A DNA stretch of 64,000 bases from a virus (lineage: Duplodnaviria; Heunggongvirae; Uroviricota; Caudoviricetes), in IMG/VR virus record IMGVR_UViG_2913167280_000003, positions 1-64,000 of that record; one strand, given 5' to 3'. The position numbers were made by a program, and so were the translations under genes. Of this stretch, positions 11,529 to 47,604 are shown piece by piece (positions within the stretch are counted from its first letter, which is position 1; each line of letters starts with the position of its first letter). Below the pieces are notes generated by a model. That model had not been told where the DNA came from and ran no database searches. It saw only the letters and a program-made list of their open reading frames with translations.

Positions 11529-12017
11529 GTGGCACAACGCGGTGTAAACAAAGTCATCCTGATTGGTACCCTGGGGCAAGACCCGGAGATCAGGCATATA
11601 CCAAATGGCGGAGCAGTCGGAAGACTCAGCATCGCAACGAATGAATCATGGCGCGACAAGCAAACGGGCCAACAGAAAGAGCAAACAGAATGGCATAGAG
11701 TCGTTTTGTTCGGGAAACTTGCTGAAATTGCGAGTGAGTATTTACGAAAAGGTTCTCAGGTCTACATCGAAGGGAAACTTAAAACCCGTAAGTGGACAGA
11801 TGACGCCGGTGTAGAACGTTACACGACGGAAATTATCGTCAGCCAGGGCGGAACCATGCAAATGATCGGCGCCCGCCGCGACGATTCACAATCCTCAAAT
11901 AGCTGGGGGCAATCAAACCAACCTCAAAACCACCAGCAATACAGCGGTGGCGGTAAACCTCCGAGCAACGCCAATAACGAACCTCCAATGGACTTTGAAG
12001 ACGATATTCCGTTTTAG
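11529..12017 (+). CDS. ssb: Single-stranded DNA-binding protein
   Basis: N-terminus [21 protein letters not shown] matches the SSB OB-fold start; Gly/Gln-rich linker; acidic C-terminal tail ending DDIPF. Start assigned to GTG 11529. Confidence 0.9.
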
Positions 12018-12291
12018 GAGTTGACTTGTGAGCCATGTGTAAAAAACGACTGAAAGAAAACACCACGGAAGAGGTGGAAAGTGATTAATTTTTACTAGAA
12101 TAAAAAGGGGCCCCAGAGAGCGCCCTGATAATACGAAATTAAAGGGAAATAAATTACAAGAAGTGTAATTCTTTGCCCTCTGAATATGCAATCATGGTTA
12201 GACAAGCAAGATAGGGCGAATTAAAATTAATCAATAGTCACTTTGTTAAGATGCGCAACATCGCTTTAACATTTTATGCTTGTCATGATAT

Positions 12292-12912
12292 TTGCCTGGA
12301 AGCCTCATGAATACATATTCTGATAAAATACACAACCTTATAGATATAGCCAAATTAGCTGTGGCCATGAGGGAACATAGCTATTTTTTCGCACTTCGTC
12401 GAGGAATAGATGTTAATTTTTGTGCTGATTTAAACGGGAGTGGTACACAAGGGATATTCATAAGAAAAAAAAGTTTTAACGCGTATGAGCCAAGTTTTAT
12501 TGAAGTAATTTTTGAACCCACTCATAAAAACGATGATTCATTTCTATACGAAGAGGACCTTACTACCGATCAACGAAAAGACTACGAACCTAGTATTAAC
12601 AGAGGAAAACATCGATTCGTTGCCCAACGTGCTAAACTAAATCTCGACTGGGACAGTAATGAAATCCAACAATGGCGTTTGGATATTGAGCGACTTTCTA
12701 AACCACACAACACTCTTAATGACTGGTTAGAAAATGATTCAGAGATAATGATAATACATCTCTGCGGCGGTTATAGGTTCCGTGAACCAGTGATACTTTC
12801 TCAAAGAGACATTAAACAATATGTAGCTTCAGGATTGACTCTGGAAGACTTAAAAAATCGGCTAAAGTGCTCAATATGTGGTGAGCGAAACGCCAAAATT
12901 AAAGTTTTTTGA
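12292..12912 (+). CDS. Hypothetical protein, low-GC orphan gene
   Basis: 206-aa ORF in a markedly AT-rich segment between ssb and the end of the dar operon; no recognisable motif. Followed by a 10-bp-stem hairpin (12931-12960). Confidence 0.5.
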   Translation: MPGSLMNTYSDKIHNLIDIAKLAVAMREHSYFFALRRGIDVNFCADLNGSGTQGIFIRKKSFNAYEPSFIEVIFEPTHKNDDSFLYEEDLTTDQRKDYEPSINRGKHRFVAQRAKLNLDWDSNEIQQWRLDIERLSKPHNTLNDWLENDSEIMIIHLCGGYRFREPVILSQRDIKQYVASGLTLEDLKNRLKCSICGERNAKIKVF

Positions 12913-13023
12913 TCTACTTTAGTTGGAAATGGCTTGCTTCCATAACCTAAAGCAAGCCACTACACATTTACCTTAAGCACACGATAACATGCCAGAACAG
13001 GTTATTTTTGCACTATCAGGGAG

Positions 13024-19963: not shown

Positions 19964-20037
19964 AAGTTCCCTCCTACGTTGTCAGGAGGTAATGGTATGC
20001 AAAGTAACTTCTCAACCGGTCATGTTGCATAAGAGGC

Positions 20038-20301
20038 TTACCTATTCAACTGACTTTTGGAACCTTCAATAATGAGCCTGCTATTGGCGCTGAAAATAAG
20101 AACCATGCAGCTCTGAAGGCTTTCATTCATATCCTTATATTCCGCGAGATACATGCCAATAAAGCCAGCAAGTACGGCGGAAATACATTCGGCCAGCAAT
20201 TTCTTGCATGAAGGCTCGTAACGGTTTTCACATAGCCCAGTCAAATACGAATACACCCCACCAAGAAGGGATAACATCACGATATGTACATAAAATGTCA
20301 T
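20038..20301 (-). CDS. Small membrane protein (LydC-like position)
   Basis: 87-aa ORF with two hydrophobic segments between lydA and the cin remnant. Confidence 0.4.
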   Translation of the reverse strand: MTFYVHIVMLSLLGGVYSYLTGLCENRYEPSCKKLLAECISAVLAGFIGMYLAEYKDMNESLQSCMVLIFSANSRLIIEGSKSQLNR

Positions 20302-20429
20302 TTTTTACCTATACAACAGTAAGTTGAACAACATTTGAGAACGGTATGCACTTTGTGATTTCCACACACACTGGTTTTTGTTAATTAAAATCCGCAGCTT
20401 GCTATAAATAACGATAGTGAGCAGAAAAT

Positions 20430-20669
20430 ATGCTAATAGGCTAAGTACGCGTATCAACAAATGAACAAAACACTGCTTTGCAACGAAATGCCCTTAAAAG
20501 CGCAGGATGTGAGCTAATTTTTGAGGATAAGGCGAGCGGCAAAAAGGCTGAACGCCCTGGGTTAAAAAAGGTTCTGCGTATGCTTTCCAGAAGTGACACC
20601 CTGGTCGTATGGAAGTTAGAGCGTCTTGGGCGCAGCATACGTCACTTGGTTGTGCTGGTGGAAGATTGA
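20430..20669 (+). pseudogene. cin: Serine invertase (Cin/Gin/Hin family) remnant, nonsense at codon 5 and truncated after about 79 codons
   Basis: Reads MLIG-stop-VRVSTNEQNTALQRNALKSAGCELIFEDKASGKKAERPGLKKVLRMLSRSDTLVVWKLERLGRSIRHLVVLVED. TAA at 20442-20444 replaces the conserved Tyr5 codon and the frame stops at 20669; the rest of the enzyme is absent. Confidence 0.8.
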
Positions 20670-20906
20670 AAAGTTAGCAGTTATCACAGCTACCCGATCA
20701 CTATCCGGAGCAATGAAGAAGATAGCGAGAATGGAAGAAAACACCTAACAATTTGATACATGATATTTTTACACGAAGAGCGAAACTCCTTTTGCAGGAA
20801 ATGGTCGCAATTACCTTTATGATGAAGGGTTGTCAACAGTTATTCTATTTTTTATAATCCACAAAAAAACAATTCAGGGTATTTTATATAAAAGTCAAGG
20901 CAACAT

Positions 20907-21449
20907 ATGGATATTGATTTTCTTAAAGAGTGTCTCCTAGTTGAAGTTATTGGTGGGGGTAATAAACAATTCTCATGGCCTCGCGCCATTCGCCATGCCT
21001 GGCGGCAACCTAAACGCAGGTTTCTTTTTTGGTGGCGTATAGCATCTTATCTATATGATATGGACAACAAATATCTAAAAAAACTCGGAAAGAAAATTAA
21101 CAGAAATTTATCCTTTAAATACAATACTGATATTGAACTTGGAGCATCAATAGCTCCTGGATTATACATTGGACATTATAGTGGCATTGTTATTACAAGA
21201 TATGCAACGATTGGTAGAAATTTTAATATAAGGCAAAACACAACTATTGGTTTAAAAAATTCTAACACTAACAGAGTTACCATTGGAGATAATGTTAATA
21301 TTGGAGCAAACTCCTGCATAATCTCAGACCACATCACTATAGGTGATAATGTAAAAATAGGGGCTTTTACCTTTGTAAATAAAGATATACCTTCAAATTC
21401 AACTTATTACACCAGGAAAATCAATATATGCAAGGAAAGGGAGGCGTAG
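20907..21449 (+). CDS. Hexapeptide-repeat (left-handed beta-helix) acetyltransferase
   Basis: 180-aa ORF in an AT-rich segment. Tandem [LIV]-G-x4 repeats: IGHYSGIVITRYATIGRNFNIRQNTTIGLKN, TIGDNVNIGANSCIISDHITIGDNVKIGAFTFV. Confidence 0.75.
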   Translation: MDIDFLKECLLVEVIGGGNKQFSWPRAIRHAWRQPKRRFLFWWRIASYLYDMDNKYLKKLGKKINRNLSFKYNTDIELGASIAPGLYIGHYSGIVITRYATIGRNFNIRQNTTIGLKNSNTNRVTIGDNVNIGANSCIISDHITIGDNVKIGAFTFVNKDIPSNSTYYTRKINICKEREA

Positions 21450-21464
21450 CCCCCCCCTTCTTTA

Positions 21465-22043
21465 CTATTTCATAAATTCTGGCCACTCGATATTAGGAGC
21501 ATCGTCAGGGTTAACTCGGTTAAGTAACACCCGGTATCTTTTCCATTTTATCAAACTTACTTTCTCTTCTTCTGTAGCCATATCCAAATCGACAGCATCT
21601 TGCAGAGTGGCAATAATTTCACCTGCATATGCAATCTTCTCCTTCTTCTGAGACTCAGCCGCTCTTACAAATGCATCACGCTCTGCCTTCTCATCATTAA
21701 CCCACACATTTCCATTCCATTTTTGATAATCCCCATCCGGGAAAATAGCTGTCACGTCTGGAGGTAATGCGCCAAGTTCAGAAATATAAATGGCTGCACC
21801 CGTTTTCGTTTCGTAGACGGTCTTTCCGCGATGGTCCTCCACCAGATGCCATTTCATTTCATCAGCATTAAATACAGCAGCAAAACCTGCTGGAATATCT
21901 GGAGGCGCAATATCTGTGCTGTTTGCAGGAATACCCGTATGTGGAGGAATATATGCGTCACTTTCACCAATAAATTCATTTGTACCATCGAGATAATTAA
22001 ATACGCGAATAGTTTGTGCTTCTGCACTCATTTTAAAACTCAT
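21465..22043 (-). CDS. U: Tail fibre assembly protein (U-like)
   Basis: 192-aa ORF immediately downstream of and overlapping the tail-fibre gene. Assigned by position and size. Confidence 0.6.
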
Positions 22044-28340: not shown

Positions 28341-28696
28341 AGCACCACGTCCTGTGTGATAGTTATATCCCTGATACGAATGGATATTTTCAACTTATCA
28401 AAAGCATCCCCCTCGGCTACTGACAAGCCAGAAATCGGTATGTCGGGTAAATCTACCGTCAGTTTTTGCAATAGCATTGCCTCAACCGCAATTTGAACAT
28501 GCGACAAGTTGGTCGGTTCGTGTTTAAACTGCGGTAAAACATTGCCCCATGACGGATCGCCGTATACCTCACCCTGATAAGTGTTTAGCCACTCATATAA
28601 ACGAGCGCCCCAGGCCTCCTCCTGGGACTCATACGTTTTTACGCCGGATAACTCCAGCGTCAGCAAAGGATCAATTTCGTTATTGTTGGCCATCAA
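28337..28696 (-). CDS. Small baseplate protein (PmgA-like position)
   Basis: 119-aa ORF translationally coupled between sit and the baseplate gene. Confidence 0.35.
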   Translation of the reverse strand: MMANNNEIDPLLTLELSGVKTYESQEEAWGARLYEWLNTYQGEVYGDPSWGNVLPQFKHEPTNLSHVQIAVEAMLLQKLTVDLPDIPISGLSVAEGDAFDKLKISIRIRDITITQDVVL

Positions 28697-31600
28697 TCAA
28701 CTCTCGCGTAGTCATTCATCAACGGATCATCAATTGACAGTGGTACCGTGCGCATAACGCCCGGCTGAGGCGTGCTGACCTTTACGACAGTTCCCTGGCC
28801 TTTCGCCGAGTCTTTGGTGTGCTCTTCAATCCTGGCAAGCAATGAGGTCATCTGCGCAAACAGCCGCTTCGTTTCACCATCAAGTGAAACGGTATTATCA
28901 GCCAACTGCATTGTCGGCTTGGCACCGGAACCGCCTAGGTCACTAATAACCTGCCCGTCTATCTGCATACGACCAGTTGGTTGCTGCAAATCGTTGGCGA
29001 CAGTCGTCACTTGCGACGTGGTGGCTGGTTCAGGCGCATTACTTTTCCGCATCCCCGGCGCGTTGCGGACTTTATCGAACAGCCCATCTATCCCCATTTG
29101 TGCGCCGAGCTGGTCAAAGTAACTTGAGTTGTTAGCAACCGGACGCGCCTCTTCAACTGGCATAGGTGTATCAACATACACATTGCCAGCTGCCGTTGCG
29201 GTTCCCTTTCCTCGTGCACGTTCTTCGAGGGTTCCCTGGACGACTTCTCGACGCATCCCCCGGCCATTCATAAATTTGTTGACCAGATCGTTAACGCCAA
29301 CAGCATTGCCGATTTTGTCTACCAGACCGTCTTTCTCAAACGGGCTATCACCAGGGGTAAACGCCAGGCCAGTAGACTGATCGATAACGGCGTTATCAGG
29401 CAGTGGTCCCATCACTCCAGATTGCGCCCCACCCTGTGCTCCTGCTCCAGGTGTATAGATTTCACCACCTAAATAGCGAGCACGATGAGTATTGACCTTG
29501 ATCGCATACTCGCGGTTTTCCTTCGATAAGTCACCGGTGCCTTTTTTCCACTTATTAATAGTGCCAAACCCTGCGTTATATGCAGTGATGGCCTCGTTTA
29601 AGTCTCCATTGGCTTGCTTCAGATACTTGCTCATGAGAAGAGCCGCAGCTTCTGCCGATTTCACAGGATCAAACGATTCACCTTTAGCTAAGCCAGTCTC
29701 TTCACGAGCAATGCCCGTGAACTGAAACATCCCTAGAGCACCAGTTTGGGATTTTGCGTACGGATTACCACCAGATTCAGTTGCAGCAATCGCGTAAAGA
29801 GTGCCTTCAGGAAGACCATATTTATTCTCTAGTTCAGCAAAATACGGAGCTAACTTATCGAGATTTGCCTTACCTTCAGCGCCAAGGCTTCCGACTTTTA
29901 CATCTAAGTTGCCATTATTGTAGGTATCAGCAGCTTTCTGAATGTCATTCCTAGTGCCGGTGGTATTACGCGACGATGATGACGAGCTATTTTGTCCAAT
30001 AGCTGTATCAATTTTCCGCACCGCGCTATTGCCCGTTTCTACGGCATTTGCATTGATAATCTGATTGGCAGTTTCTTTAACTGTTTTATTGCTATCTTTC
30101 GCCGTGTCCAGTGCCGCATTTATCACGCGGGTAGCAATATTAGTCTGTTTGGCATCGGATTCAGTTTTAGAATCAGATGTCTCCTGGTGGCTATTAACCG
30201 GAGCTTTTAACTCTGGAGTGATTTCTTTTGCATTAGCCTCGCCGATCGGATTGGGTATTTTTGATACAATCATTGCCGCAGGGGTATTTTTAACGGCATC
30301 AACCGCTGCATCTAATGCTTTACCGGGTAAATTTTTAACCCCATCCCAAATATTACCAGCCGCCTCTTTAATGTGTTTCCCTGGGTTCTTAATGAAGTCA
30401 ATTGCACTATCAATTGCATCACTGAAAACCTGTTTCAGGTTATCGACAGTAAAGAAGTCTTTTATGGCATCCAGCTTTTCAAGCAACTTATTAGATGTAT
30501 CGCTAAACCATGCTGAAACAGCATCACCAATCTTTGCTGTGTAATCATCGAACTTGGTAGAAATGGTGTCGCCAATGTTAGAAATATATGTTTCTAAGTT
30601 GGTAATCCCACTATCAATGGCCTGGGCAATACTTTCCGTCGAAAATGATTGCAACATATTGCCGATATCCTCAAATCCAAGTGATTTGAGAACATCACCA
30701 ATAGCACTGCTAATACCAGATACCAGTCCCCCCATATCGAGAACATTGGCTAACGTATAAGCGGCTTTTTGCTGGAATGACGGATCTTGTCCTGATTTAA
30801 GCCCAAACGCTCGACGTTGCGCTTCTGTATCATTCCAACCGGTTACCGCATCATAAATACCTCCAGCCACTGTGCCGACTAGGGGAATTGCGCGTAACGC
30901 CCCTTTACCAACTGCCTTTAACCCCAGTTTACCAGCTGCCCGGGCAGCCAAATCTCCGCCTTCATGGGCGAGAGTCTTCTTGCCCCCACCGCGTAGCATT
31001 CCTACGAGTTTCTTTGCCCCCAGAGCGCCAAAAGCGAGTGCTCCCGCTTTTTTCAGCATGCCACGCCCCATTAATAACGACGCGACGCCTCCGGCCCCCT
31101 TCCCTAACAGGCTAAATAATTTGGACAGCAAGCCGCCCTTCTTTTTCCCGGTGTTTTTGCCTATCTGTTCAAGGGCGCGGAGAATCTTGTCATTGCCCTC
31201 TTTAATTTCGCTGGTCTGATCCTGAAGTTCCTGAACCGTCCGTTTTTGGGTGTTAACCTGAACGACATCGGCACTACTTTGCGATTTACGCCTAAAAAAA
31301 CCTTTTCTACGGCTGTTATCGTCATTGCCACGAATCACATCAGCAATAGACTTTCTGGCACCATTAAGCGATCCGCCAACTTCTTTTGATATCCCGCCAA
31401 GCTCTTTTCCCGCTGCCCACAATGGGTCAGCAACGGCATAACCTAAAGCATCGACGGCACGAGTCTCTGAAGGGTTACCTATACCTTCAGCTACTTTTGA
31501 CAGTTTTTTTAATAAACCTGATTCAGCATTTAGACGCTCATCATCCTCTTTGCGCCTGGCCTTTTCAGCGCGTTCAGCACGGGCATCTTCCGATGCGGCC

Positions 31601-32085
31601 TTACTCCCTGACTTTCCAATAAAACGACCACGCGCATCGCGTTGGTTTTGGCTTTTTTGCGTACCGCCTTTTTGACCAAACATTTCGCGGGCGTGTTCGG
31701 CTGCTTCGGTCCGTTGCGCCTTTACATCTTCTGTTATAGCCTTCCTGCGTCGTTTTTTATCCTTTCGCGTAGTTGATTTGGCCTGCGGTTCCTGTAGAGC
31801 AACATCCTCCTGAACTACACGAGGAACGTCCCCTAAATTAAGCCGTTTCATTGCCTCAACAATAGGGTCCACTGATGGCGCTTTGGCCACAAAGTCTGGC
31901 TGGGAATGTTCGATTGTGCGATTTAATGCCGACACACTGCGAGAGACAGGATCAACAGTTGCAACTCGCCCCCCTTTCAAATCTTCAACAGCTTCCCGAA
32001 TACCTGCAAGCTCTTCCAGCTCTTTTGCGCTGGCGGTTTCAACCGTCCTTATCACATCGTCAATGTTGGCGTTTTTTCTTTCCAT
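28693..32085 (-). CDS. sit: Structural injection transglycosylase / tape-measure-like protein
   Basis: 1130-aa ORF with a soluble lytic transglycosylase core (AIAATESGGNPYAKSQTGALGMFQF ... AYNAGFG) inside a long Gly/Ala/Lys-rich repetitive protein. Confidence 0.85.
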   Translation of the reverse strand: MERKNANIDDVIRTVETASAKELEELAGIREAVEDLKGGRVATVDPVSRSVSALNRTIEHSQPDFVAKAPSVDPIVEAMKRLNLGDVPRVVQEDVALQEPQAKSTTRKDKKRRRKAITEDVKAQRTEAAEHAREMFGQKGGTQKSQNQRDARGRFIGKSGSKAASEDARAERAEKARRKEDDERLNAESGLLKKLSKVAEGIGNPSETRAVDALGYAVADPLWAAGKELGGISKEVGGSLNGARKSIADVIRGNDDNSRRKGFFRRKSQSSADVVQVNTQKRTVQELQDQTSEIKEGNDKILRALEQIGKNTGKKKGGLLSKLFSLLGKGAGGVASLLMGRGMLKKAGALAFGALGAKKLVGMLRGGGKKTLAHEGGDLAARAAGKLGLKAVGKGALRAIPLVGTVAGGIYDAVTGWNDTEAQRRAFGLKSGQDPSFQQKAAYTLANVLDMGGLVSGISSAIGDVLKSLGFEDIGNMLQSFSTESIAQAIDSGITNLETYISNIGDTISTKFDDYTAKIGDAVSAWFSDTSNKLLEKLDAIKDFFTVDNLKQVFSDAIDSAIDFIKNPGKHIKEAAGNIWDGVKNLPGKALDAAVDAVKNTPAAMIVSKIPNPIGEANAKEITPELKAPVNSHQETSDSKTESDAKQTNIATRVINAALDTAKDSNKTVKETANQIINANAVETGNSAVRKIDTAIGQNSSSSSSRNTTGTRNDIQKAADTYNNGNLDVKVGSLGAEGKANLDKLAPYFAELENKYGLPEGTLYAIAATESGGNPYAKSQTGALGMFQFTGIAREETGLAKGESFDPVKSAEAAALLMSKYLKQANGDLNEAITAYNAGFGTINKWKKGTGDLSKENREYAIKVNTHRARYLGGEIYTPGAGAQGGAQSGVMGPLPDNAVIDQSTGLAFTPGDSPFEKDGLVDKIGNAVGVNDLVNKFMNGRGMRREVVQGTLEERARGKGTATAAGNVYVDTPMPVEEARPVANNSSYFDQLGAQMGIDGLFDKVRNAPGMRKSNAPEPATTSQVTTVANDLQQPTGRMQIDGQVISDLGGSGAKPTMQLADNTVSLDGETKRLFAQMTSLLARIEEHTKDSAKGQGTVVKVSTPQPGVMRTVPLSIDDPLMNDYARVD

Positions 32086-33684: not shown

Positions 33685-34304
<620 letters not shown>

Positions 34305-34445
34305 CATTGAGTGGGAATATTGCCGTCTGGGAGTAATATGGTATCATTAAGTTAGAGTAGGTAGTGTAGATGGAATGAGGAGTATCATATGGTTATCACA
34401 CAATCAGGTTGCTTTGAGTCAGGTTGTTTTGAGTAAAACAATAAA

Positions 34446-34470
34446 ACGCCCTTTAATGGGCGTATTTTTT
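34446..34470 (+). terminator. Terminator-like hairpin between the pmgC-like promoter and the membrane-protein gene
   Basis: ACGCCC-TTTAAT-GGGCGT followed by ATTTTTT; A-rich on the 5' side, so possibly bidirectional. Confidence 0.45.
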
Positions 34471-34480
34471 AGGATTTAAA

Positions 34481-35374
34481 ATGCATTCTTTACAGAAATA
34501 CATAAAACATAAATATACTCACTTAACTTTTTTTCTCTCATTACTTTTTTTCATGATATTTGAATCGCGAGAAGATCTTATCAAGAAAATATTATCTTTT
34601 TCTCTCAATGAAGTTTTACCATTCTTAATGTTTGCGTTCTTCTCCGTATTTATCAGCATAACGATAAAGGAAAAGATAGCAAAGAAATACCCAGAAACAA
34701 ACGATGGGATTACCATTATAGCTTTAATCTTTGGTGTAACACTATATAGTGTGTTTATCTTATATTATTTATATGGTGATGTATACCAATCCACAATTGC
34801 TTTACTTATAAGTTCTGTGCTACTTGGTTCTGGGTGGTGGGTTCAGGCTACTGTGAGTAAAGTAGCCGCAAGAAAATCACACACCTTAAATACACTAATG
34901 AATCAAAGAAACAGTGAATTATTTCACAAGAAAGTTTCATCGGTAGCGAATACGTTCGGGCTTAGAAAAACCATAAATGAAATTATTGCCAAACAAAGAC
35001 TTGTCCCAAATGATAAAGATTTAAAAAATAAAAAGGTCCATGATGAATACATATCAGCAGGTAATGATATGTTCTTCGTTCTTAATTATTATGAATTTAT
35101 CTGTTCAGGAATAATAAATGGGGACTTTGATGAAGATTCAATGAGAGAATGTCTTGGACAAATTGTTCCAGGTCTCGAAGTTAGAGCATTTCATTTTATA
35201 AGAATTGCAAGAGAAATTTCAGGGAGTAGCTGCTTCTGTAATTTTGTCGCTGTTTCAGACAAATGGTCTACTAATGGAGGCTCTCTTATTCTCAGACACG
35301 AGAAAGGAGAACCTGTGATTAATAACCTGACCCATTGCTTTGAAGAAACAGACTGTTTTAACATAACTTCTTAA
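34481..35374 (+). CDS. Predicted 4-TM membrane protein with ~170-aa cytoplasmic C-terminal domain (accessory gene)
   Basis: 297-aa ORF, very AT-rich, AGGA RBS 6 nt upstream. Hydrophobic helices LTFFLSLLFFMIF, VLPFLMFAFFSVFISITI, GITIIALIFGVTLYSVFILYYLYG, TIALLISSVLLGSGWWV. Bracketed by ~90-bp direct repeats. Confidence 0.6.
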   Translation: MHSLQKYIKHKYTHLTFFLSLLFFMIFESREDLIKKILSFSLNEVLPFLMFAFFSVFISITIKEKIAKKYPETNDGITIIALIFGVTLYSVFILYYLYGDVYQSTIALLISSVLLGSGWWVQATVSKVAARKSHTLNTLMNQRNSELFHKKVSSVANTFGLRKTINEIIAKQRLVPNDKDLKNKKVHDEYISAGNDMFFVLNYYEFICSGIINGDFDEDSMRECLGQIVPGLEVRAFHFIRIAREISGSSCFCNFVAVSDKWSTNGGSLILRHEKGEPVINNLTHCFEETDCFNITS

Positions 35375-35380
35375 TATTTT

Positions 35381-35407
35381 GTAACCCATAATCGCTTTAT
35401 GGGTTAC
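35381..35407 (+). terminator. Hairpin downstream of the membrane-protein gene
   Basis: GTAACCCAT-(9 nt)-ATGGGTTAC perfect 9-bp stem, 7 nt after the stop codon. Confidence 0.4.
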
Positions 35408-35609
35408 GTTAAATTTGCAATAAAAAAATCAATCGCCGGGCTTTAAGCATCCATCGTTTTTGGCTTGTTGATATAACTTACTTAGCCCAGAAAGAGGGAA
35501 TGTGGCAATTTTTTCATTATCAACATAAGCATCAATCACATTAGCATTTGAATCTGCTGCATCCTGCCAAAAGGCATACCACCAAGAATCTCCAACCATT
35601 GACCCAAGA

Positions 35610-35699
35610 GGGATTTGACGTCTTCGAGTAATTGTCGTTGTGTCATTGACACCTCGTAGAATCTGGTGTGTTAACCGATTCTACGAGTTATCATTTGTT
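35610..35699. repeat. Direct repeat copy 2 (~90 bp), duplicate of the pmgC-like 5' end and promoter
   Basis: 85/89 identical to 34215-34303; retains the ATG and first 12 codons ([12 protein letters not shown]) and the ACAAATGATAA-N4-TAGAAT motif. Confidence 0.85.
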
Positions 35700-35799: not shown

Positions 35800-36984
35800 T
35801 CAAGCTTTAAGAGGCTTTGTGTATGTTCGTGTAATCCATCCAGTAATAAACTCGTCCCCTGATTTAACCTGCACGAAAAGCCATTGGCGATCTTTTTTAT
35901 CTAAAATAGCAACAATTGTATTTTTACCAATGCACTCTATCACTTCACTATTTAAAGAAGGACTGACATGTAATCTTACATTATCACCTGTTATAGCTCT
36001 AAAATTATTAAGATCCTCCCACTGAATATCTTTATTTTCTTGTGTTAGCTTTTGCTTAGATATTGGCTTATCCTCATTTAGGGATAGAATATATGATTCC
36101 ATCCCGTAAATTTGCGATAATGTTTTTTCTTTCGCATAATCAGTTATAGCGCCAAGAAATACTTGACACAAAATCCACAGAAGAAAAGTCTGAACAGGAG
36201 AAGGAAGCGCCTTAAATGAATCAATAAACGTCGAACTAGATTTATTTAATCCTTTGTCTTGAGCATCACTTTCAGTGTGTGATGTTTCAATGGCACCTTC
36301 GATATAAGCCTGTGCAATTGTTGAAAGACCTTGCTCCATTATTTGATGAAATGAAGCCTTTTGTGCTTGAGTATATTGATTTAATAATTCTTTTATTTCA
36401 TTGTTTAAATCTATCTTGTGAGTTACATTTTTCCGCAATTCATTAAGCATTGCTTGCATGTTATTCAAGCCAGCTTGCTTATTAAGCATCTCGAACTGGT
36501 TTCGTAACGGCATAGCTATTTCGGCCTGTTTCCTTAGCATTTGAATGTGTTTATTTGCATCATGAGTGGAAAAAGCCTGAGCCTGTTTCTGTAAAATATC
36601 AATATGTTTACGAAACTCGTTGCCTATTCCTGCCAGTTTCGGCATATTCTCAAACTGTTTTCGAATAGAATCACTAACTATGGATTGCAAATTAAATCTT
36701 GCTATTTGTTCTTGAGCTAGCTGTCCTATTCTTAACTGTTTTTGCAAGTTTGCCATATGTTCTTTATACGATGGAATGATTGCGTTTTTTTGCAGTTCCG
36801 CCAACTGTCTAACCAAATTATTAGAAGCATAATCTGATTTTAATAAATCACTTACCGATTTATATTCGGGCATTTTGATTTTATTTAAATCATCACGCCA
36901 AGTAATATTTGAATCTTTATTATAAAGATCGCTTACTGAGCCAAGAGCAAGTTTTTTAATGTCCTTCACTTTATTCACCGTCAT
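35800..36984 (-). CDS. Hypothetical protein: helical N-terminal region, one predicted TM helix, C-terminal SH3b-like domain
   Basis: 394-aa ORF, AT-rich; hydrophobic segment VQTFLLWILCQVFLGAITDY; C-terminal region (NVRLHVSPSLNSEVIECIGKNTIVAILDKKDRQWLFVQVKSGDEFITGWITRTY) resembles bacterial SH3 folds. Start overlaps the upstream gene by 14 nt. Confidence 0.5.
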   Translation of the reverse strand: MTVNKVKDIKKLALGSVSDLYNKDSNITWRDDLNKIKMPEYKSVSDLLKSDYASNNLVRQLAELQKNAIIPSYKEHMANLQKQLRIGQLAQEQIARFNLQSIVSDSIRKQFENMPKLAGIGNEFRKHIDILQKQAQAFSTHDANKHIQMLRKQAEIAMPLRNQFEMLNKQAGLNNMQAMLNELRKNVTHKIDLNNEIKELLNQYTQAQKASFHQIMEQGLSTIAQAYIEGAIETSHTESDAQDKGLNKSSSTFIDSFKALPSPVQTFLLWILCQVFLGAITDYAKEKTLSQIYGMESYILSLNEDKPISKQKLTQENKDIQWEDLNNFRAITGDNVRLHVSPSLNSEVIECIGKNTIVAILDKKDRQWLFVQVKSGDEFITGWITRTYTKPLKA

Positions 36985-37435
36985 CTTGCTTTAAACACCC
37001 ATCATTTTTAGCTTCCTTGTAAATACTTGAAATGCCATCAAGAGAGAATGATGTAATTCGACGCGATCCGATATATACATCCATGTTTTTTTCTTTTGTG
37101 GCTGACGCTGACTTCCAAAAAGAATACCATTCCCTACGATTAGGAGAAGTGTTTTGCGTGCCAATATTAAAACTATCCGAACCAACAATTAAAGTAATTA
37201 CATCTGCTTTACGAGAAATTGTGTCGCGTGTAGAAAAATCGGCATTCTCTTTTCCTCCGCTTACATACAAATTTCTTCCAGCGATATGGTCTTCAGAACC
37301 ATCCCTTGCACCAGCATCACAAGAAAAATTAATTGTATAGCCATCCTCATGACATGCTCCGGCAAAGCGCCTCATTTGACGCTCCTGTTGACCATCTTGT
37401 CTTAACTGGAATTTAAATGCTTGTAGTCGTTTCAT
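36971..37435 (-). CDS. Hypothetical soluble protein, first gene of a two-gene operon
   Basis: 154-aa ORF with no TM segment or signal peptide; translationally coupled to the 394-aa gene. Confidence 0.5.
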   Translation of the reverse strand: MKRLQAFKFQLRQDGQQERQMRRFAGACHEDGYTINFSCDAGARDGSEDHIAGRNLYVSGGKENADFSTRDTISRKADVITLIVGSDSFNIGTQNTSPNRREWYSFWKSASATKEKNMDVYIGSRRITSFSLDGISSIYKEAKNDGCLKQDDGE

Positions 37436-37614: not shown

Positions 37615-37789
37615 GTATTTTTAAGTCGCGAATGCTATCTTTTCGCATCATATTGACCTTTTAATCGTTCAGGCTTATAGTTCCGCCGTCGTAGCAAATT
37701 CTGCGACCAGGTTTGACAGCCTGAAAACTTACGCGGACAACCGCACATTTCCGATATTGCGGTATTTTTGTGTCCGTAAAACCACGTTA

Positions 37790-37870
37790 CGCCCGAATTA
37801 TGGTGGGGCGTGATGGGGAGGCTTCGGCCTGCTGGTTTCGTAAGTGCCAGTCTGTCAACCCTGTCACGTC
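37790..37870 (+). ncRNA. c4: c4-like antisense RNA region (approximate boundaries)
   Basis: ORF-free region between the operator and icd. Contains CTGTCAACC (37852-37860) and CTGTCACG (37861-37868), complementary to the repeated TTTGACAGC motifs at 37711-37720 and 37881-37889. Confidence 0.4.
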
Positions 37871-37927
37871 CTGCCACCTGTTTGACAGCGGGTCGCAGGT
37901 TGTTTATCAACTTACGAGGCCGTAACT

Positions 37928-38149
37928 ATGGTTAATGCCAATCCTTGCGCACGCCAAGAATTCATCTGGCGTTTCTATTCCTGTAAAAAACACCACTATC
38001 ACTTCGTTATCGCAGCAACAGAAGACGAAGCACGCTCTCAATTGCCTGATGGCCCCTGCATTTTTACTGCCCGTTTTTCGACTAACTCGCGCAATTCACT
38101 TAGTTACTGGAACCTCCCCTTCTCTGCCGACGTTCAGGGGGTTTTATGA
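37928..38149 (+). CDS. icd: Icd-like small protein, translationally coupled to ant
   Basis: 73-aa ORF whose stop overlaps the ant start by 4 nt, directly downstream of the c4-like region. Confidence 0.55.
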   Translation: MVNANPCARQEFIWRFYSCKKHHYHFVIAATEDEARSQLPDGPCIFTARFSTNSRNSLSYWNLPFSADVQGVL

Positions 38150-39183
38150 AAAAACCTCTCGTCACCCGGAATGAAATAGCCGAAGCGGTCGCCCTGCATA
38201 CTGCCTGTATGCCGACACGGGAGATCCCCGGCGCAATTGCCAACTACTTCATGATAACCAGGCGTTTTTATACCCGAACAGATAAGGCTGTGATCAACAG
38301 GCTACTGATAGCCGAGATCAGGGATTATTTGATTGAACAAGGACGTCTACGTTACGCAACAGTGGCAGCAGAAATGAGAAAGGAGGCACATAGAATGACC
38401 GGTAATAATTTGAATGTTGAAAAACCAGCACCTGTTACGTCAGCTACGCCAGCACCAGCCGTGAATATTATCCCCAACACCGGAGACACAATCGACAGCC
38501 TGACACTGTTAAAGATGGTCAATGAAGCGCGTAAGTTATGTGGGGAACCAGAGGTTCGGAACAACAAATTCATCGAAAAAATACTCGATGAGCTTGATGG
38601 TGAGCACTACACAAAAAGTGTAGTGGAAAAAATGAACAAAACATCAATGCTTGTCATAACCATGACCTACAAACAAGCCCTGCGAGTCGCCGCGCGCGAA
38701 TCAAAAGCTGTCCGCCGTTCGCTGATCGACAAACTGGAAGAATTGCAGCAGGCAAACTCCCCTACCCCATCGATCCCCCAAACATTACCAGAAGCCCTAC
38801 GCCTGGCTGCCGAGTTGGCAGAACAGAAAATGCAGCTGGAACAACAGCTGGTGGCCGCAGCCCCTAAAGTCGATTTTGCCGACCGGGTATCAGTGGCTAA
38901 TGGAATCCTGATCGGGAACTTTGCAAAGGTCGTTGGACTGAAGCAAAACGCCCTTTTCTCATGGTTGCGCCAGAACGGCATTCTCATGGCTTTTGGTGCG
39001 CGCAAAAACGTACCGCGCCAACAGTACATCAACGCCGGGTATTTCACGGTGAAAGAAGTGGTGCTGGATGATGAAAATGGCTACCAGATACGGCTGACGC
39101 CCCAATTAACGGGTAAAGGCCAGCAGTGGTTAACTCGTAAGCTACTTGCTACTGGTTTGTTAAAACCAGTAGCAATAGGTTAA
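38146..39183 (+). CDS. ant: Antirepressor (Ant1; Ant2 probably from an internal in-frame start)
   Basis: 345-aa ORF. Its C-terminal ~150 aa (PQTLPEALRLAAELAEQKMQLEQQL ... GKGQQWLTRKLLATGLL) are closely related to the KilA C-terminus. Confidence 0.7.
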   Translation: MKKPLVTRNEIAEAVALHTACMPTREIPGAIANYFMITRRFYTRTDKAVINRLLIAEIRDYLIEQGRLRYATVAAEMRKEAHRMTGNNLNVEKPAPVTSATPAPAVNIIPNTGDTIDSLTLLKMVNEARKLCGEPEVRNNKFIEKILDELDGEHYTKSVVEKMNKTSMLVITMTYKQALRVAARESKAVRRSLIDKLEELQQANSPTPSIPQTLPEALRLAAELAEQKMQLEQQLVAAAPKVDFADRVSVANGILIGNFAKVVGLKQNALFSWLRQNGILMAFGARKNVPRQQYINAGYFTVKEVVLDDENGYQIRLTPQLTGKGQQWLTRKLLATGLLKPVAIG

Positions 39184-41317: not shown

Positions 41318-41499
41318 TACAATCGCTGCGGGTGCTTGAGGCTATCTGCTTCAGGCACTACCCGACAAGCAGATAGAAGAAAGCCCCAGATAACATTACG
41401 CGTCCTGCAAGACGCTTAACATTAATCTGAGGCCATATCTATGCTTAGCATACGTAGATTAGCCCTCTCCCCTTTTTAGGAGCAAGGAATTTTTTACTG

Positions 41500-42132
41500 C
41501 TATGCCGCCTTTCCAATTATGGATTCAGCGACCAGAACAACCCCATGCTTACTTCTATCTGGGTGTTCACTCCATATCTCGGATTCAGGAATACTTACCC
41601 CGTCATAGCAAACACGTTCGCCGTCAAACGGGTAATACTGAGCGGCATCGGTGTCGAGGATAAACACTTTTAGCTCGGAAGAGCGACGGGCGATGTGTTG
41701 CCAAAGAGCTTTTCCACCTTCGTATTGCTCATTATCACTGAGCAAAACAACACCAGCTTTTGAGGCTACGGTTTCGTAAACAAAAGTAGCTAAACCGACA
41801 TCCCGGACGGTTCCATCAACCACGATACCTTCAATCTGGGCAACATCGCTATCCTCCCAGAACTTCCTTACAAGTACGCCTTCAAGCTGCGGGCGACGTT
41901 GAAGTTCAAGAGTAGCGACAACCTTATGGCGCATATCACCATCGATAACAGAAGGCGCAGCCTCTATTACAGCTGCAAATGGGGTTTTGGAATCCCATAT
42001 AACCTGGTAAAGCACACCCTGGATGGTAACTCCGTCCAGGATCGAAAATCGACGAGCGACAGTACCCGGGGAGTACGACATTGGAATCACAGCCATTTTA
42101 GAGTCCCCCTTTAACAGTACAGGCACAAACAT
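41500..42132 (-). CDS. Hypothetical protein (PmgF-like position)
   Basis: 210-aa ORF with its own AT-rich upstream region. Confidence 0.35.
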   Translation of the reverse strand: MFVPVLLKGDSKMAVIPMSYSPGTVARRFSILDGVTIQGVLYQVIWDSKTPFAAVIEAAPSVIDGDMRHKVVATLELQRRPQLEGVLVRKFWEDSDVAQIEGIVVDGTVRDVGLATFVYETVASKAGVVLLSDNEQYEGGKALWQHIARRSSELKVFILDTDAAQYYPFDGERVCYDGVSIPESEIWSEHPDRSKHGVVLVAESIIGKAA

Positions 42133-45876: not shown

Positions 45877-47604
45877 TTACTCAGAGTCACCAGCATCAAT
45901 CGTGTTACCGGTCAGGAAGTTAATTCCGCCATTTTTGGCCATAGTCAGAGTTACACGGGTGAAGTAGTCAGCACCGTTGCGTGGATGCATATCGTTGATA
46001 GCAGAACCCCACAGAGTGGTTCGGTTGACCAGTGCCGGGGTGGTCGGATGCTGGAATGGGATAGCTGGGACCGCATCACCAGTCACGAAGCCTGCCTTGC
46101 CCGGATTTTCATCACGGACGTAGCACAGCACATCCATCGGGCTGAACTGGATACCTTCGGCGGTCAGGTTCGTGCAAATACCCTCAGGTACTTCGTACAC
46201 CTTCACGTTACCGAACAGGGTGCCGATGAAGTGAACGTACGGAGTCTGGGTATAGTCTTCAGCTGGCTGGAAGAAATCCTTCGGAAGCTGTTTGAAGAAA
46301 GATGCTGCATCAGCACCAGCAAACATCCCCATCGCACCAGAAGATTTAACGCGCTCAATAATGTCGCGATATACAGTCTGGAATTTGCCGCGAATGATGG
46401 TTGCCCATACATCAAAGGATTGGTTAACCGGCAGAGCGATGTCAAAGGAGTCGGTCGCAAGAGTACGCCAGATCATGATGCGAAGACGCAGCATATCCTG
46501 TTCATGAGACAGGTATTCCTTCAGGGTGCGGAACTGTAGGGAACCCAGGTCCAGACCAAACTCACGCTGTGCTTCATACGCCGCCTGTACCGTGTGCTCA
46601 GCCGCGATAACGAACTGGCTTGGGAACAAGGTGTATTTCTTCATTTCGTGGTTGATCAGCGGGATAAGCTCAGGAGCGGCTTCAATATTGATTTCCGTCT
46701 CAATTGCGATCTCAGTGCCTTTATCCGGCGCTTTGGAGAACGACAGGGCAATCTGACCAATGTTGTAGTTCAGAGAGCAGGTAACAGTGATTTGCTCCCC
46801 AGCAGCATTAGTAAACGAGTGAAGTAGGCTGCCGGAGCCGTTATCAACAACAGACTTAATACGGTTAACGTAGATGTTAGTGCGACCTTTGCGAATTGGG
46901 ACATTCTGGCCTTCGAAGTCTTCCATCTTGAAGGTTGCGGTTTTGCTGGTGCCATCGGAGCTTGCCACCAGCACATAGCGGCGGCGTAACTGGCTGTACA
47001 CACCAACGGACTGCATGTCCAGAACATCACCAGCAGCATAAGAACCAAAAGAAGAACCCGCCACGTTAAAGACTTCGTAGATGTCGGACTGGTCACGCGT
47101 AACCGGAATGAAGGTACACGCATCAGCGGTAGCTGCCCCCAACTGAACAGGCAGGATCATCGCCAGGAATAAAGGCAGACGCATAACACCGTCAGAAACA
47201 CTCATCATCTCTGCCGCGACTGATTCCAGCATCGCTTTATTGGTGGAGTCCATGCTATTGCGGGTGGACTCAATCAGGCAGTTTTCCAGCGTCTGGTGGC
47301 AGGAGGCCAGAATTTCCGGACGCGGCATAGATTTATGTGTTGCGGCATAGTCAGCCAGTGCACTTGCCCATGCGGTAGCAATTTGAGCGGTGGCATTATC
47401 AGAAATACCCGCAAAAATCGGGTCTTTGCGTGCAGCTTCAAGGATAGATGCGGCACGCGCGGCATCATCTTTGATGAATTGGTTATCAGTACCGAACTGT
47501 GCTGTACTTGCCCAGCCAAGAACGGCTTTAGAGCGTTTTGCGATATCTGCAATACGATTCTGGTATTCGCGTAAGTTACTCAAGTTACTCTTCCTTAAAC
47601 ACAA
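45877..47604 (-). CDS. Major capsid protein (gp23-like)
   Basis: 575-aa ORF adjacent to parS, preceded by a late-promoter-like motif; TTG start in the ORF track, so the true start is uncertain. Confidence 0.55.
   Translation of the reverse strand: MCLRKSNLSNLREYQNRIADIAKRSKAVLGWASTAQFGTDNQFIKDDAARAASILEAARKDPIFAGISDNATAQIATAWASALADYAATHKSMPRPEILASCHQTLENCLIESTRNSMDSTNKAMLESVAAEMMSVSDGVMRLPLFLAMILPVQLGAATADACTFIPVTRDQSDIYEVFNVAGSSFGSYAAGDVLDMQSVGVYSQLRRRYVLVASSDGTSKTATFKMEDFEGQNVPIRKGRTNIYVNRIKSVVDNGSGSLLHSFTNAAGEQITVTCSLNYNIGQIALSFSKAPDKGTEIAIETEINIEAAPELIPLINHEMKKYTLFPSQFVIAAEHTVQAAYEAQREFGLDLGSLQFRTLKEYLSHEQDMLRLRIMIWRTLATDSFDIALPVNQSFDVWATIIRGKFQTVYRDIIERVKSSGAMGMFAGADAASFFKQLPKDFFQPAEDYTQTPYVHFIGTLFGNVKVYEVPEGICTNLTAEGIQFSPMDVLCYVRDENPGKAGFVTGDAVPAIPFQHPTTPALVNRTTLWGSAINDMHPRNGADYFTRVTLTMAKNGGINFLTGNTIDAGDSE

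Follow-up and report, generated by a model that had tools for sequence, protein, structure and literature searches.

A DUF4760 membrane-protein gene in the sim region of a P1-like phage-plasmid is preceded by a conserved micropeptide ORF and terminator

The DNA analysed in this study (64,000 nt, positions 1 to 64,000 of the IMG/VR record IMGVR_UViG_2913167280_000003, hereafter referred to as the window) derives from a P1-like phage-plasmid of the Caudoviricetes, and carries at 34481-35374 an AT-rich gene encoding a 297-aa inner-membrane protein of the DUF4760 family. An initial annotation, based on the letters of this DNA, had presented this gene as a single-gene effector of superinfection exclusion or abortive infection with its own ribosome-binding site. 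The latter was indeed found (AGGA), but a conserved micropeptide open reading frame (ORF) and an intervening terminator, both located directly upstream, had been overlooked; the unit is therefore two-part, which alters the mechanistic model. Taken alone, the DUF4760 gene is unremarkable, being an annotated member of a family that is uncharacterised, and the novelty lies in the module of which it is part.

Organisation of the module and its membrane protein

The following features, all on the + strand, were identified in and around the gene:

34320-34347, +, sigma-70-like promoter candidate (TTGCCG, 16-nt spacer, TG-extended TATCAT), the only plausible module promoter in a promoter scan
34377-34382, +, Shine-Dalgarno (SD) sequence GAGGAG of the micropeptide ORF, 6 nt upstream of the start codon (SD score 5 of 5)
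34389-34436, +, unannotated 15-codon ORF encoding MVITQSGCFESGCFE, with two SGCFE units and a TAA stop codon; orthologous mini-ORFs are present in 75 loci
34443-34472, +, intrinsic terminator with GC core ACGCCC/GGGCGT (34446-34463), an A-tract/U-tract extension and then a T-run
34471-34474, +, SD sequence AGGA of the DUF4760 gene, 6 nt upstream of the ATG, as read from the sequence
34481-35374, +, gene for the DUF4760-family inner-membrane protein (ATG start, 297 aa), with four transmembrane helices followed by a cytoplasmic all-helical domain
35380-35408, +, terminator-like hairpin with a 12-bp stem, identified from the sequence, which closes the module

The promoter candidate reached a score of 10 on a 12-point hexamer scale with one bonus point for a TG-extended -10 element, a value attained by 2-3 of 50 shuffled sequences. 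The mini-ORF, the terminator and the start of the DUF4760 gene are packed into 93 nt, with the terminator (hairpin of -11.8 kcal/mol, without competing pairing) beginning 6 nt past the micropeptide stop codon and its GC core ending 17 nt upstream of the DUF4760 ATG. Because the terminator precedes the gene and leaves no space for a separate promoter, DUF4760 can be transcribed only by read-through. The gene is the distal member of a compact operon consisting of a promoter-like site, an SD sequence, the 15-codon ORF, a terminator, a second SD sequence, DUF4760 and a closing terminator.

An Rfam scan of the leader returned no family. When the read-through leader is folded to its minimum free energy (z = -2.4), the SD/AUG region of DUF4760 (34473-34489) pairs with the SGCFE-coding repeat that comes first (34406-34420), an arrangement that may mask the DUF4760 translation start.

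The same 297-aa product is called by RefSeq on P1-like plasmids with ~97% identity. The M1 start was preferred over the internal M25, used in phrog_21275, since homologues keep the N-terminal 'KYTHLT' stretch; with the first 24 residues conserved among homologues, the M25 start was ruled out. A hydropathy scan (threshold 1.6) flagged residues ~37-64 and ~75-99 as two segments and gave weaker peaks around 14-28 and 104-124. The AlphaFold model (mean pLDDT 81.8) presented helices at 11-28, 42-69, 71-98 and 103-143 and, C-terminal to these, a domain that is helical throughout. The ORF call, RefSeq, the hydropathy scan and the model thus bear out the four transmembrane helices and the soluble C-terminal domain proposed in the initial annotation, and both termini are predicted by the positive-inside rule to be cytoplasmic.

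The statement in the same annotation that the C-terminal domain has no assignable motif is outdated, as residues 120-262 match Pfam DUF4760 (PF15956; E-value 8.7e-14, 52.3 bits versus a gathering cut-off of 25 bits, profile positions 13-141 of 141). 'DUF4760 domain-containing protein' is already the RefSeq name of the product and its sole annotation on all plasmids with the full cassette. Profile searching of 1.84 billion representatives yielded 693 clusters at 50% identity, which have in common the last transmembrane helix and a helical domain with the motifs G-W...R..HT.N...R.S and NYYEF..G...D.D...W. The query carries the family-conserved residues G118, W119, R131, H134, T135, N137, R143, S145, N202-F206, D215, D217 and W262 (each present in 71-98% of 168 diverse members), and H134, T135, R143, N202, E205 and D217 are near-invariant polar positions (about 89-98% of the same members).

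Searches with the 297-aa protein returned no defence family from PADLOC-DB v2 at E-values up to 1, sub-threshold noise only from NCBIfam, 'unknown function' families only from PHROGs, and no match in a sequence-profile search of the PDB; PADLOC applied to 53 diverse DUF4760 members gave just three isolated weak matches, in one member apiece. A HEPN nuclease assignment was rejected, since R143-x5-H149 is present in the query, but H149 is not conserved in close homologues and the family-wide motif is R..HT. The closest structural resemblance reported by Foldseek, to the EP domain of plant EDS1/PAD4/SAG101, falls in the grey zone (E-value at least 1.8, probability at most 0.28, TM-score at most 0.50, identity 5-9%); unlike the EDS1 family, the DUF4760 protein has no lipase-like domain and no TIR partner, and the likeness is a resemblance rather than evidence of homology. 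In the searchable literature DUF4760 was encountered once, as a table entry with no function assigned.

Recurrence of the layout and conservation of the peptide

The micropeptide-terminator-DUF4760 layout was observed in 15 of the 17 loci examined first, and in total at 75 loci (52 distinct peptide/protein pairs), which belong to phages, to prophages and to a P4-like satellite. A scan of IMG/VR retrieved 58 DUF4760 loci, and a mini-ORF and terminator were present in all 47 for which upstream DNA was available (L076 and L078 being assigned by eye). Homologues with 30-57% identity to the query protein are preceded by the same layout, examples of which encode the following peptides:

Erwinia P4-like satellite: MKKFDSGCFDSGCFD
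Logan contig L010: MQKIESGCLESGCLESGCLE
Pseudomonas prophages: MALLIGCEE, MNVLIGCEE, MLVLIGCDE and MVLQIGCEE
Phage phi467: MKKTLTVGFGEG
Phage Riah: MKLETGVGAG
Acinetobacter phage TRS1: MKTTKLNYRLADGYGIG

As a control, the layout was scored at 13 DUF4760 genes versus only 4 of ~490 other ORFs (at least 100 aa) of the same loci. A promoter-like site was found ahead of most modules, with 46 of 54 scoring at least 9 on the 12-point scale plus the extended -10 point, which represents modest evidence. The layout is conserved over the DUF4760 family in temperate phages, prophages and the P4-like satellite. Literature searches for DUF4760, PF15956, the peptide motifs, and leader peptides in combination with abortive infection (Abi) found nothing relevant, and the partner micropeptide and terminator are absent from every DUF4760 description or annotation found; as far as available libraries and literature show, the module is undescribed.

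The C-terminal motifs of the peptides fall into the classes SGC[FLN][ED] (two to three units), IGCEE, VGFGEG, IGYGEG, GVGEG, DGYGIS and GIGLG, in addition to singletons, and the motif abuts the stop codon in every case. Tandem core units occur in the closest relatives (two to three SGCFE-type units of 15 nt), with a single unit in most clades. Third codon positions vary (GGT/GGC/GGA, TTT/TTC, TAT/TAC, TGC/TGT) while the C-terminal motif is kept, and it remains constant even though the identity of the partner protein drops to 30-52% within a class. Furthermore, the type of motif tracks the DUF4760 clade and not the host, with both SGCFE and VGFGEG being found in Escherichia coli, and IGCEE, IGSQE and GVGAG in Pseudomonas. 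At the level of sequence comparison, these patterns show selection to act on the peptide, or at least on its codon identity.

Two narrower explanations of the motif were considered. Sensing of serine, glycine or cysteine tRNA was ruled out, because the motif is always at the stop codon and differs among clades. Mimicry of a K+-channel selectivity filter, suggested by TVGFG in peptides of the VGFGEG class (e.g. that of phi467; L002, L037-L057 and others), is probably a coincidence, given that Thr and Val vary within the class.

The main alternative to a trans-acting peptide is a cis-acting leader peptide, in which translation of the mini-ORF, or a ribosome paused or arrested at its stop codon via the Gly-containing motif, gates read-through, and the free peptide has no role. 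We regard this as a real, if somewhat unlikely, alternative. Even under such a model, DUF4760 would probably act as a membrane protein of exclusion or abortive infection, with its production limited to a particular translational or physiological state. The order SD, short ORF, terminator and gene, without an intervening promoter, is the classical geometry of an attenuator, and the pairing of the first SGCFE repeat with the DUF4760 SD/AUG region also speaks for this alternative. Arrest peptides such as TnaC, SpeFL and SecM act through residues next to the stop codon, and the conserved residues of the DUF4760 peptides are likewise the last five to six ahead of it. Binding of a ribosome to a tiny ORF modulates the terminator of the microcin C operon (PMC4231749), and in the window and in L010 the distance between stop codon and hairpin is 5-6 nt, i.e. 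inside a ribosome footprint.

The terminators themselves are strong. Their hairpins average -15.2 kcal/mol, and no competing antiterminator was found in the leaders, the alternative pairing of the 5' arm averaging -1.9 kcal/mol versus -2.5 kcal/mol in shuffled controls and thus being weaker than in the shuffles. The spacing from stop codon to stem ranges from 5 to 44 nt (mode 13-17, about 40 in the VGFGEG class), and is 9 nt or less in only 7 of 48 leaders. Classical attenuation is unsupported because there is no competing antiterminator and because this spacing is variable, the latter also implying that direct occlusion by the ribosome is not general; occlusion of the terminator is possible in a minority of loci only, the window among them. 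Attenuation of the trp type was rejected, as a short ORF and a terminator are present, but neither an antiterminator nor a consistent overlap with the ribosome was found. Two further observations argue against a leader peptide acting in cis: the ribosome is conserved, yet the motif varies among DUF4760 clades within one host species, and the stop codons of the mini-ORFs are mixed (TAA, TAG and TGA). The modules therefore resemble leader-peptide attenuators and arrest peptides (trpL, pheL and pyrL; TnaC and SpeFL) in having a short ORF just before a terminator and conserved residues at the stop codon, but differ from them in lacking an alternative antiterminator helix, in their variable spacing, and in a motif that varies with the clade of the downstream protein.

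The sim slot of P1-like phage-plasmids and the decayed module of P1

The neighbours of the module are P1 genes, namely sit (28693-32085), pmgB, tub and pmgC (33685-34251; PHROG 'PmgC-like') on one side, and the immunity operon c4/icd/ant, 2.3 kb from the DUF4760 gene and followed by kilA, on the other. The features that delimit this region are as follows:

34211-34303, no strand assigned, direct repeat copy 1, comprising the 5' end of pmgC and a region matching the P1 late promoter LPsit, with a hairpin with 17-nt arms inside
35429-35599, - strand, 56-aa ORF, a 3' fragment of a phrog_3429 gene (profile positions 103-157 of 158), which duplicates the C-terminus of the 154-aa ORF at 36971-37435
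35606-35698, no strand assigned, direct repeat copy 2, comprising a second pmgC 5' end and LPsit-like sequence; recombination boundary of the cassette
37675-37727, a1/b1 targets of C4 (Rfam)
37796-37881, C4 antisense RNA (Rfam)
38146-39183, ant

The two 93-nt direct repeats, which are 95% identical, bracket the DUF4760 gene, and comparison with the syntenic, annotated region of P1 identifies them as a duplicated pmgC 5' end plus LPsit; it follows that recombination between P1-like elements stacked the cassette into place. Consistent with this boundary, the alignment of P7-type and SJ46-type plasmids to the window begins only at 35606-35698. Megablast comparison showed that between the same flanks P1 carries simC-simB-simA in place of the module, and simABC figures among the eight low-GC, highly variable regions that a published comparison lists for phage-plasmids of this type (PMC9603915). 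The DUF4760 ORF has a GC content of 32.6% and a third-position GC content (GC3) of 27.6%, compared with 46-50% and 43-52%, respectively, for the flanking P1 backbone genes, and 48% GC for the whole window. The initial annotation was thus correct in describing a gene more AT-rich than its backbone, in a repeat-bracketed cassette near the immunity region and at a location used for accessory genes, the latter being supported by the sim slot, the published variable region, and the moron and hot-spot positions of relatives. Within the sim variable region of this phage-plasmid, the DUF4760 gene represents horizontally acquired, AT-rich accessory cargo.

The slot may also hold a record of a former occupant. 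In P1 (L088, NC_005856, about 46577-46785; considered together with L085-L087) and in most sim-type plasmids, the spacer between pmgC and simC is a decayed DUF4760 leader, with a 23-nt promoter deletion in which the -10 element was lost, a premature stop codon (CAA to TAA), and the loss of one SGCFE repeat, while the terminator is retained as the 3' boundary of simC. Among 178 P1-like plasmids of E. coli, the full module was present in 46, a remnant only in ~111, and a full-length leader without DUF4760 in ~21; in AR_0372, the one sim-type plasmid without DUF4760 that was examined, promoter, mini-ORF and terminator are intact. Of 5426 complete E. coli genomes, 46 carry the full module (~97% identity), in each case on a P1-like plasmid, and 79 further genomes of this set harbour a DUF4760 family gene on the chromosome; in PLSDB, the full cassette is found in at least 30 plasmids (~97% identity). 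From the decayed leader in the P1 spacer it follows that sim and DUF4760 are alternative cargoes and that the DUF4760 module was probably first. Judged from these sequences, the module looks like the older occupant of the slot, with a leader that decays after loss of the gene.

Elsewhere, the module occupies comparable positions. It lies between primase and integrase in the Erwinia P4-like satellite, between the lysis cassette and the integrase or prophage end in Pseudomonas, and next to the integrase in phi467 and L010, whereas in Acinetobacter phage TRS1 it forms a terminator-flanked moron within the tail operon. In chromosomal islets DUF4760 is located beside HipA (Burkholderia), a PD-(D/E)XK nuclease or a transposase. 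Such positions are typical of defence, exclusion or addiction cargo, which constitutes circumstantial evidence. In Haemophilus the gene is found between housekeeping genes. A role as a holin or as part of the lysis cassette was rejected, since a promoter-like site and terminators belong to the module itself, which in many cases lies on the strand opposite.

The shared slot makes a stand-alone superinfection-exclusion protein, which is the model of the initial annotation, worth weighing: DUF4760 alone would block incoming DNA at the inner membrane as a replacement of Sim, with the mini-ORF being incidental. The occupation of the sim slot, the inner-membrane location of the protein and the moron positions of relatives favour this idea. 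The module and P1 simABC share the interval from pmgC/LPsit to c4-icd-ant, both are low in GC, and both are presumably expressed in the lysogen, but they are in opposite orientation and have no sequence similarity, BLASTP between SimC and the 297-aa protein giving a best E-value of 1.1. Moreover, the mini-ORF and terminator are conserved family-wide together with the gene and are decayed where it was lost, so that they are not incidental, and the presence of homologues in satellites and chromosomal islets of many genera argues against specificity for a single phage type. We consider this explanation very unlikely.

A function outside conflict, in which DUF4760 acts in lysogenic conversion or in membrane physiology (ion, envelope or stress homeostasis) as a fitness moron, agrees with the want of matches to known defence families and with the Haemophilus gene among housekeeping genes. 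Set against it are a strong positional bias, towards the ends of prophages, a hot spot in a satellite, the sim slot of P1 and neighbours of the toxin-antitoxin type, as well as the patchy distribution of the module among E. coli genomes, where it is always confined to P1-like plasmids, rendering such a function highly improbable.

Several other features of the region were noted. The LPsit-like promoter in repeat copy 2 points leftwards and, if active, would drive late antisense transcription across DUF4760 up to the bidirectional hairpin at 34446-34463; the module might thereby be silenced while the element itself grows lytically. The arrangement of the 56-aa ORF beside DUF4760 is also found in plasmid pLH10-b-1-B, this ORF being carried along with the cassette. 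The 154-aa ORF (36971-37435, - strand) appears chimeric, its first 28 residues matching the N-terminal helix-turn-helix of IS605 OrfB/TnpB and the remainder phrog_3429, and both ORFs read as scars of cassette shuffling or as an insertion-sequence remnant. A second foreign cargo gene of the sim-region gap is seen at 35800-36984 (- strand), an AT-rich (34% GC) ORF whose 394-aa product has long coiled-coil-like repeats, a single hydrophobic segment and, at its C-terminus, a bacterial SH3_3 domain (phrog_7086, unknown function). An Rfam match to sok antitoxin RNA at 41330-41504 (+ strand; 87 bits) implies a type I toxin-antitoxin locus of the hok/sok type just past the repL-side genes. Two more low-GC islands (37-40% versus 48% for the backbone), at 12001-13000 and 20001-22000, are probably other published variable regions of P1-like phage-plasmids.

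A candidate two-component conflict system

Our tentatively preferred reading is that the module takes part in conflict, with an abundant micropeptide keeping a membrane effector in check. The module, expressed in the lysogen, would serve anti-phage or exclusion defence and/or plasmid addiction. Due to the terminator, the peptide message would be made far in excess of the full-length message, and the cytoplasmic micropeptide would be the cognate, trans-acting partner of the cytoplasmic domain of DUF4760. The C-terminal motif of the peptide would mediate the binding, for which the invariant polar cluster R131/H134/T135/R143/N202/E205/D215/D217 is the probable site. The bound peptide would keep the effector inactive; where peptide supply fails, as a consequence of phage-induced host shut-off or plasmid loss, the unstable peptide would be lost and DUF4760 would damage the membrane, leading to abortive infection or post-segregational killing.

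A number of points weigh against a restraining micropeptide. The tracking of protein clade by peptide class is no proof of physical interaction, as adjacent sequences may simply be co-inherited; to our knowledge, no antitoxin is as short as 8-20 residues; and neither the protein nor the 53 family members gave a convincing PADLOC match. The ~21 sim-type plasmids that carry only the leader fit an orphan antidote, but fit recent replacement equally well, and two distant GC-rich homologues (L022 and L023) have no obvious mini-ORF. In the window, moreover, the 6-nt gap between stop codon and terminator means that a terminating ribosome could mask the hairpin, which provides a physical basis for a leader acting in cis at this locus.

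The architecture nevertheless has parallels. ToxIN, a type III toxin-antitoxin/Abi system of plasmids and phages, consists of upstream repeats, a terminator that sets the antidote-to-toxin ratio, and an effector gene. The module shares with it the succession of a repeated element, a terminator and an effector gene, but its effector is a membrane protein and has no ToxN-like PADLOC match. Antidote RNA repeats of the type III kind were rejected as an explanation of the SGCFE repeats, since these are codons with synonymous variation, preceded by an SD sequence and ATG, and comprise just two to three 15-nt units, or a single unit in most clades.

A second parallel is the microcin C operon, in which a tiny, SD-preceded ORF (mccA, encoding a heptapeptide) is followed by an intrinsic terminator and mccB, resulting in an abundant short and a rare long transcript (PMC4231749). 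The module likewise places a tiny ORF and an intergenic terminator upstream of a partner gene, and by analogy its constitutive terminator fits control of stoichiometry, as in mccA-mccB, rather than switching. Its downstream gene, however, encodes a membrane protein in which Pfam finds only DUF4760 and no MccB-like (E1/ThiF-type) enzyme, and its neighbours are unrelated, with no export or immunity genes. MccA ends in Asn, whereas the DUF4760 peptides end in Gly-containing motifs.

The same operon logic (mccA-terminator-mccB) lends some substance to a further alternative, in which the peptide is a substrate or signal, i.e. a precursor that is modified, cleaved or exported by DUF4760 to give a microcin-like product (or other ribosomally synthesized and post-translationally modified peptide) or a peptide used in phage communication, with the terminator ensuring an excess over the enzyme. 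The tandem core units of the closest relatives would suit such a precursor, and the invariant polar cluster H134, R143, N202, E205 and D217 (each in more than 90% of the 168 diverse members) could be catalytic. The peptides have no signal sequence, however, and the modules are solitary, with no ATPase, exporter or immunity gene alongside; some peptides measure just 8-9 residues, leaving no space for a recognition leader, and the domain is unlike any known peptide-modifying enzyme. A substrate or signal role is accordingly judged unlikely.

Returning to the peptide as a restraining partner, a more general proposal may be formulated, namely that DUF4760 modules are a widespread, undescribed class of phage and satellite immunity or addiction systems, in which an 8-20-residue, ribosomally made micropeptide antidote or regulator is sensed, via a clade-specific C-terminal Gly motif, by a cytoplasmic domain of the membrane effector whose nearest structural relative would be the ligand-binding EP domain of plant EDS1-family immune proteins, with a hard-wired terminator setting the ratio. 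At this breadth the proposal is rather doubtful. More narrowly, the module is a variation on known operon logics (toxin-antitoxin/Abi-like, microcin-like and attenuator-like), there is a real chance that it represents a new kind of system, and among possible new phage-conflict systems it makes a good candidate.

Temperate phages, phage-plasmids and satellites commonly carry genes for DUF4760 proteins, a family on which there is almost no literature, and a near-universal, unannotated and co-evolving micropeptide gene plus terminator turns an anonymous membrane protein into a defined two-component system, for which antidote, cis-acting sensor and substrate are directly testable hypotheses for the role of the peptide. 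The P1 sim locus emerges as a hot spot of cargo exchange, with the spacer of P1 itself being a fossil of a DUF4760 module. Should the peptide act in trans, no smaller protein partner would be known from phage-conflict systems, and it would add a further case of functional micropeptides overlooked by genome annotation.

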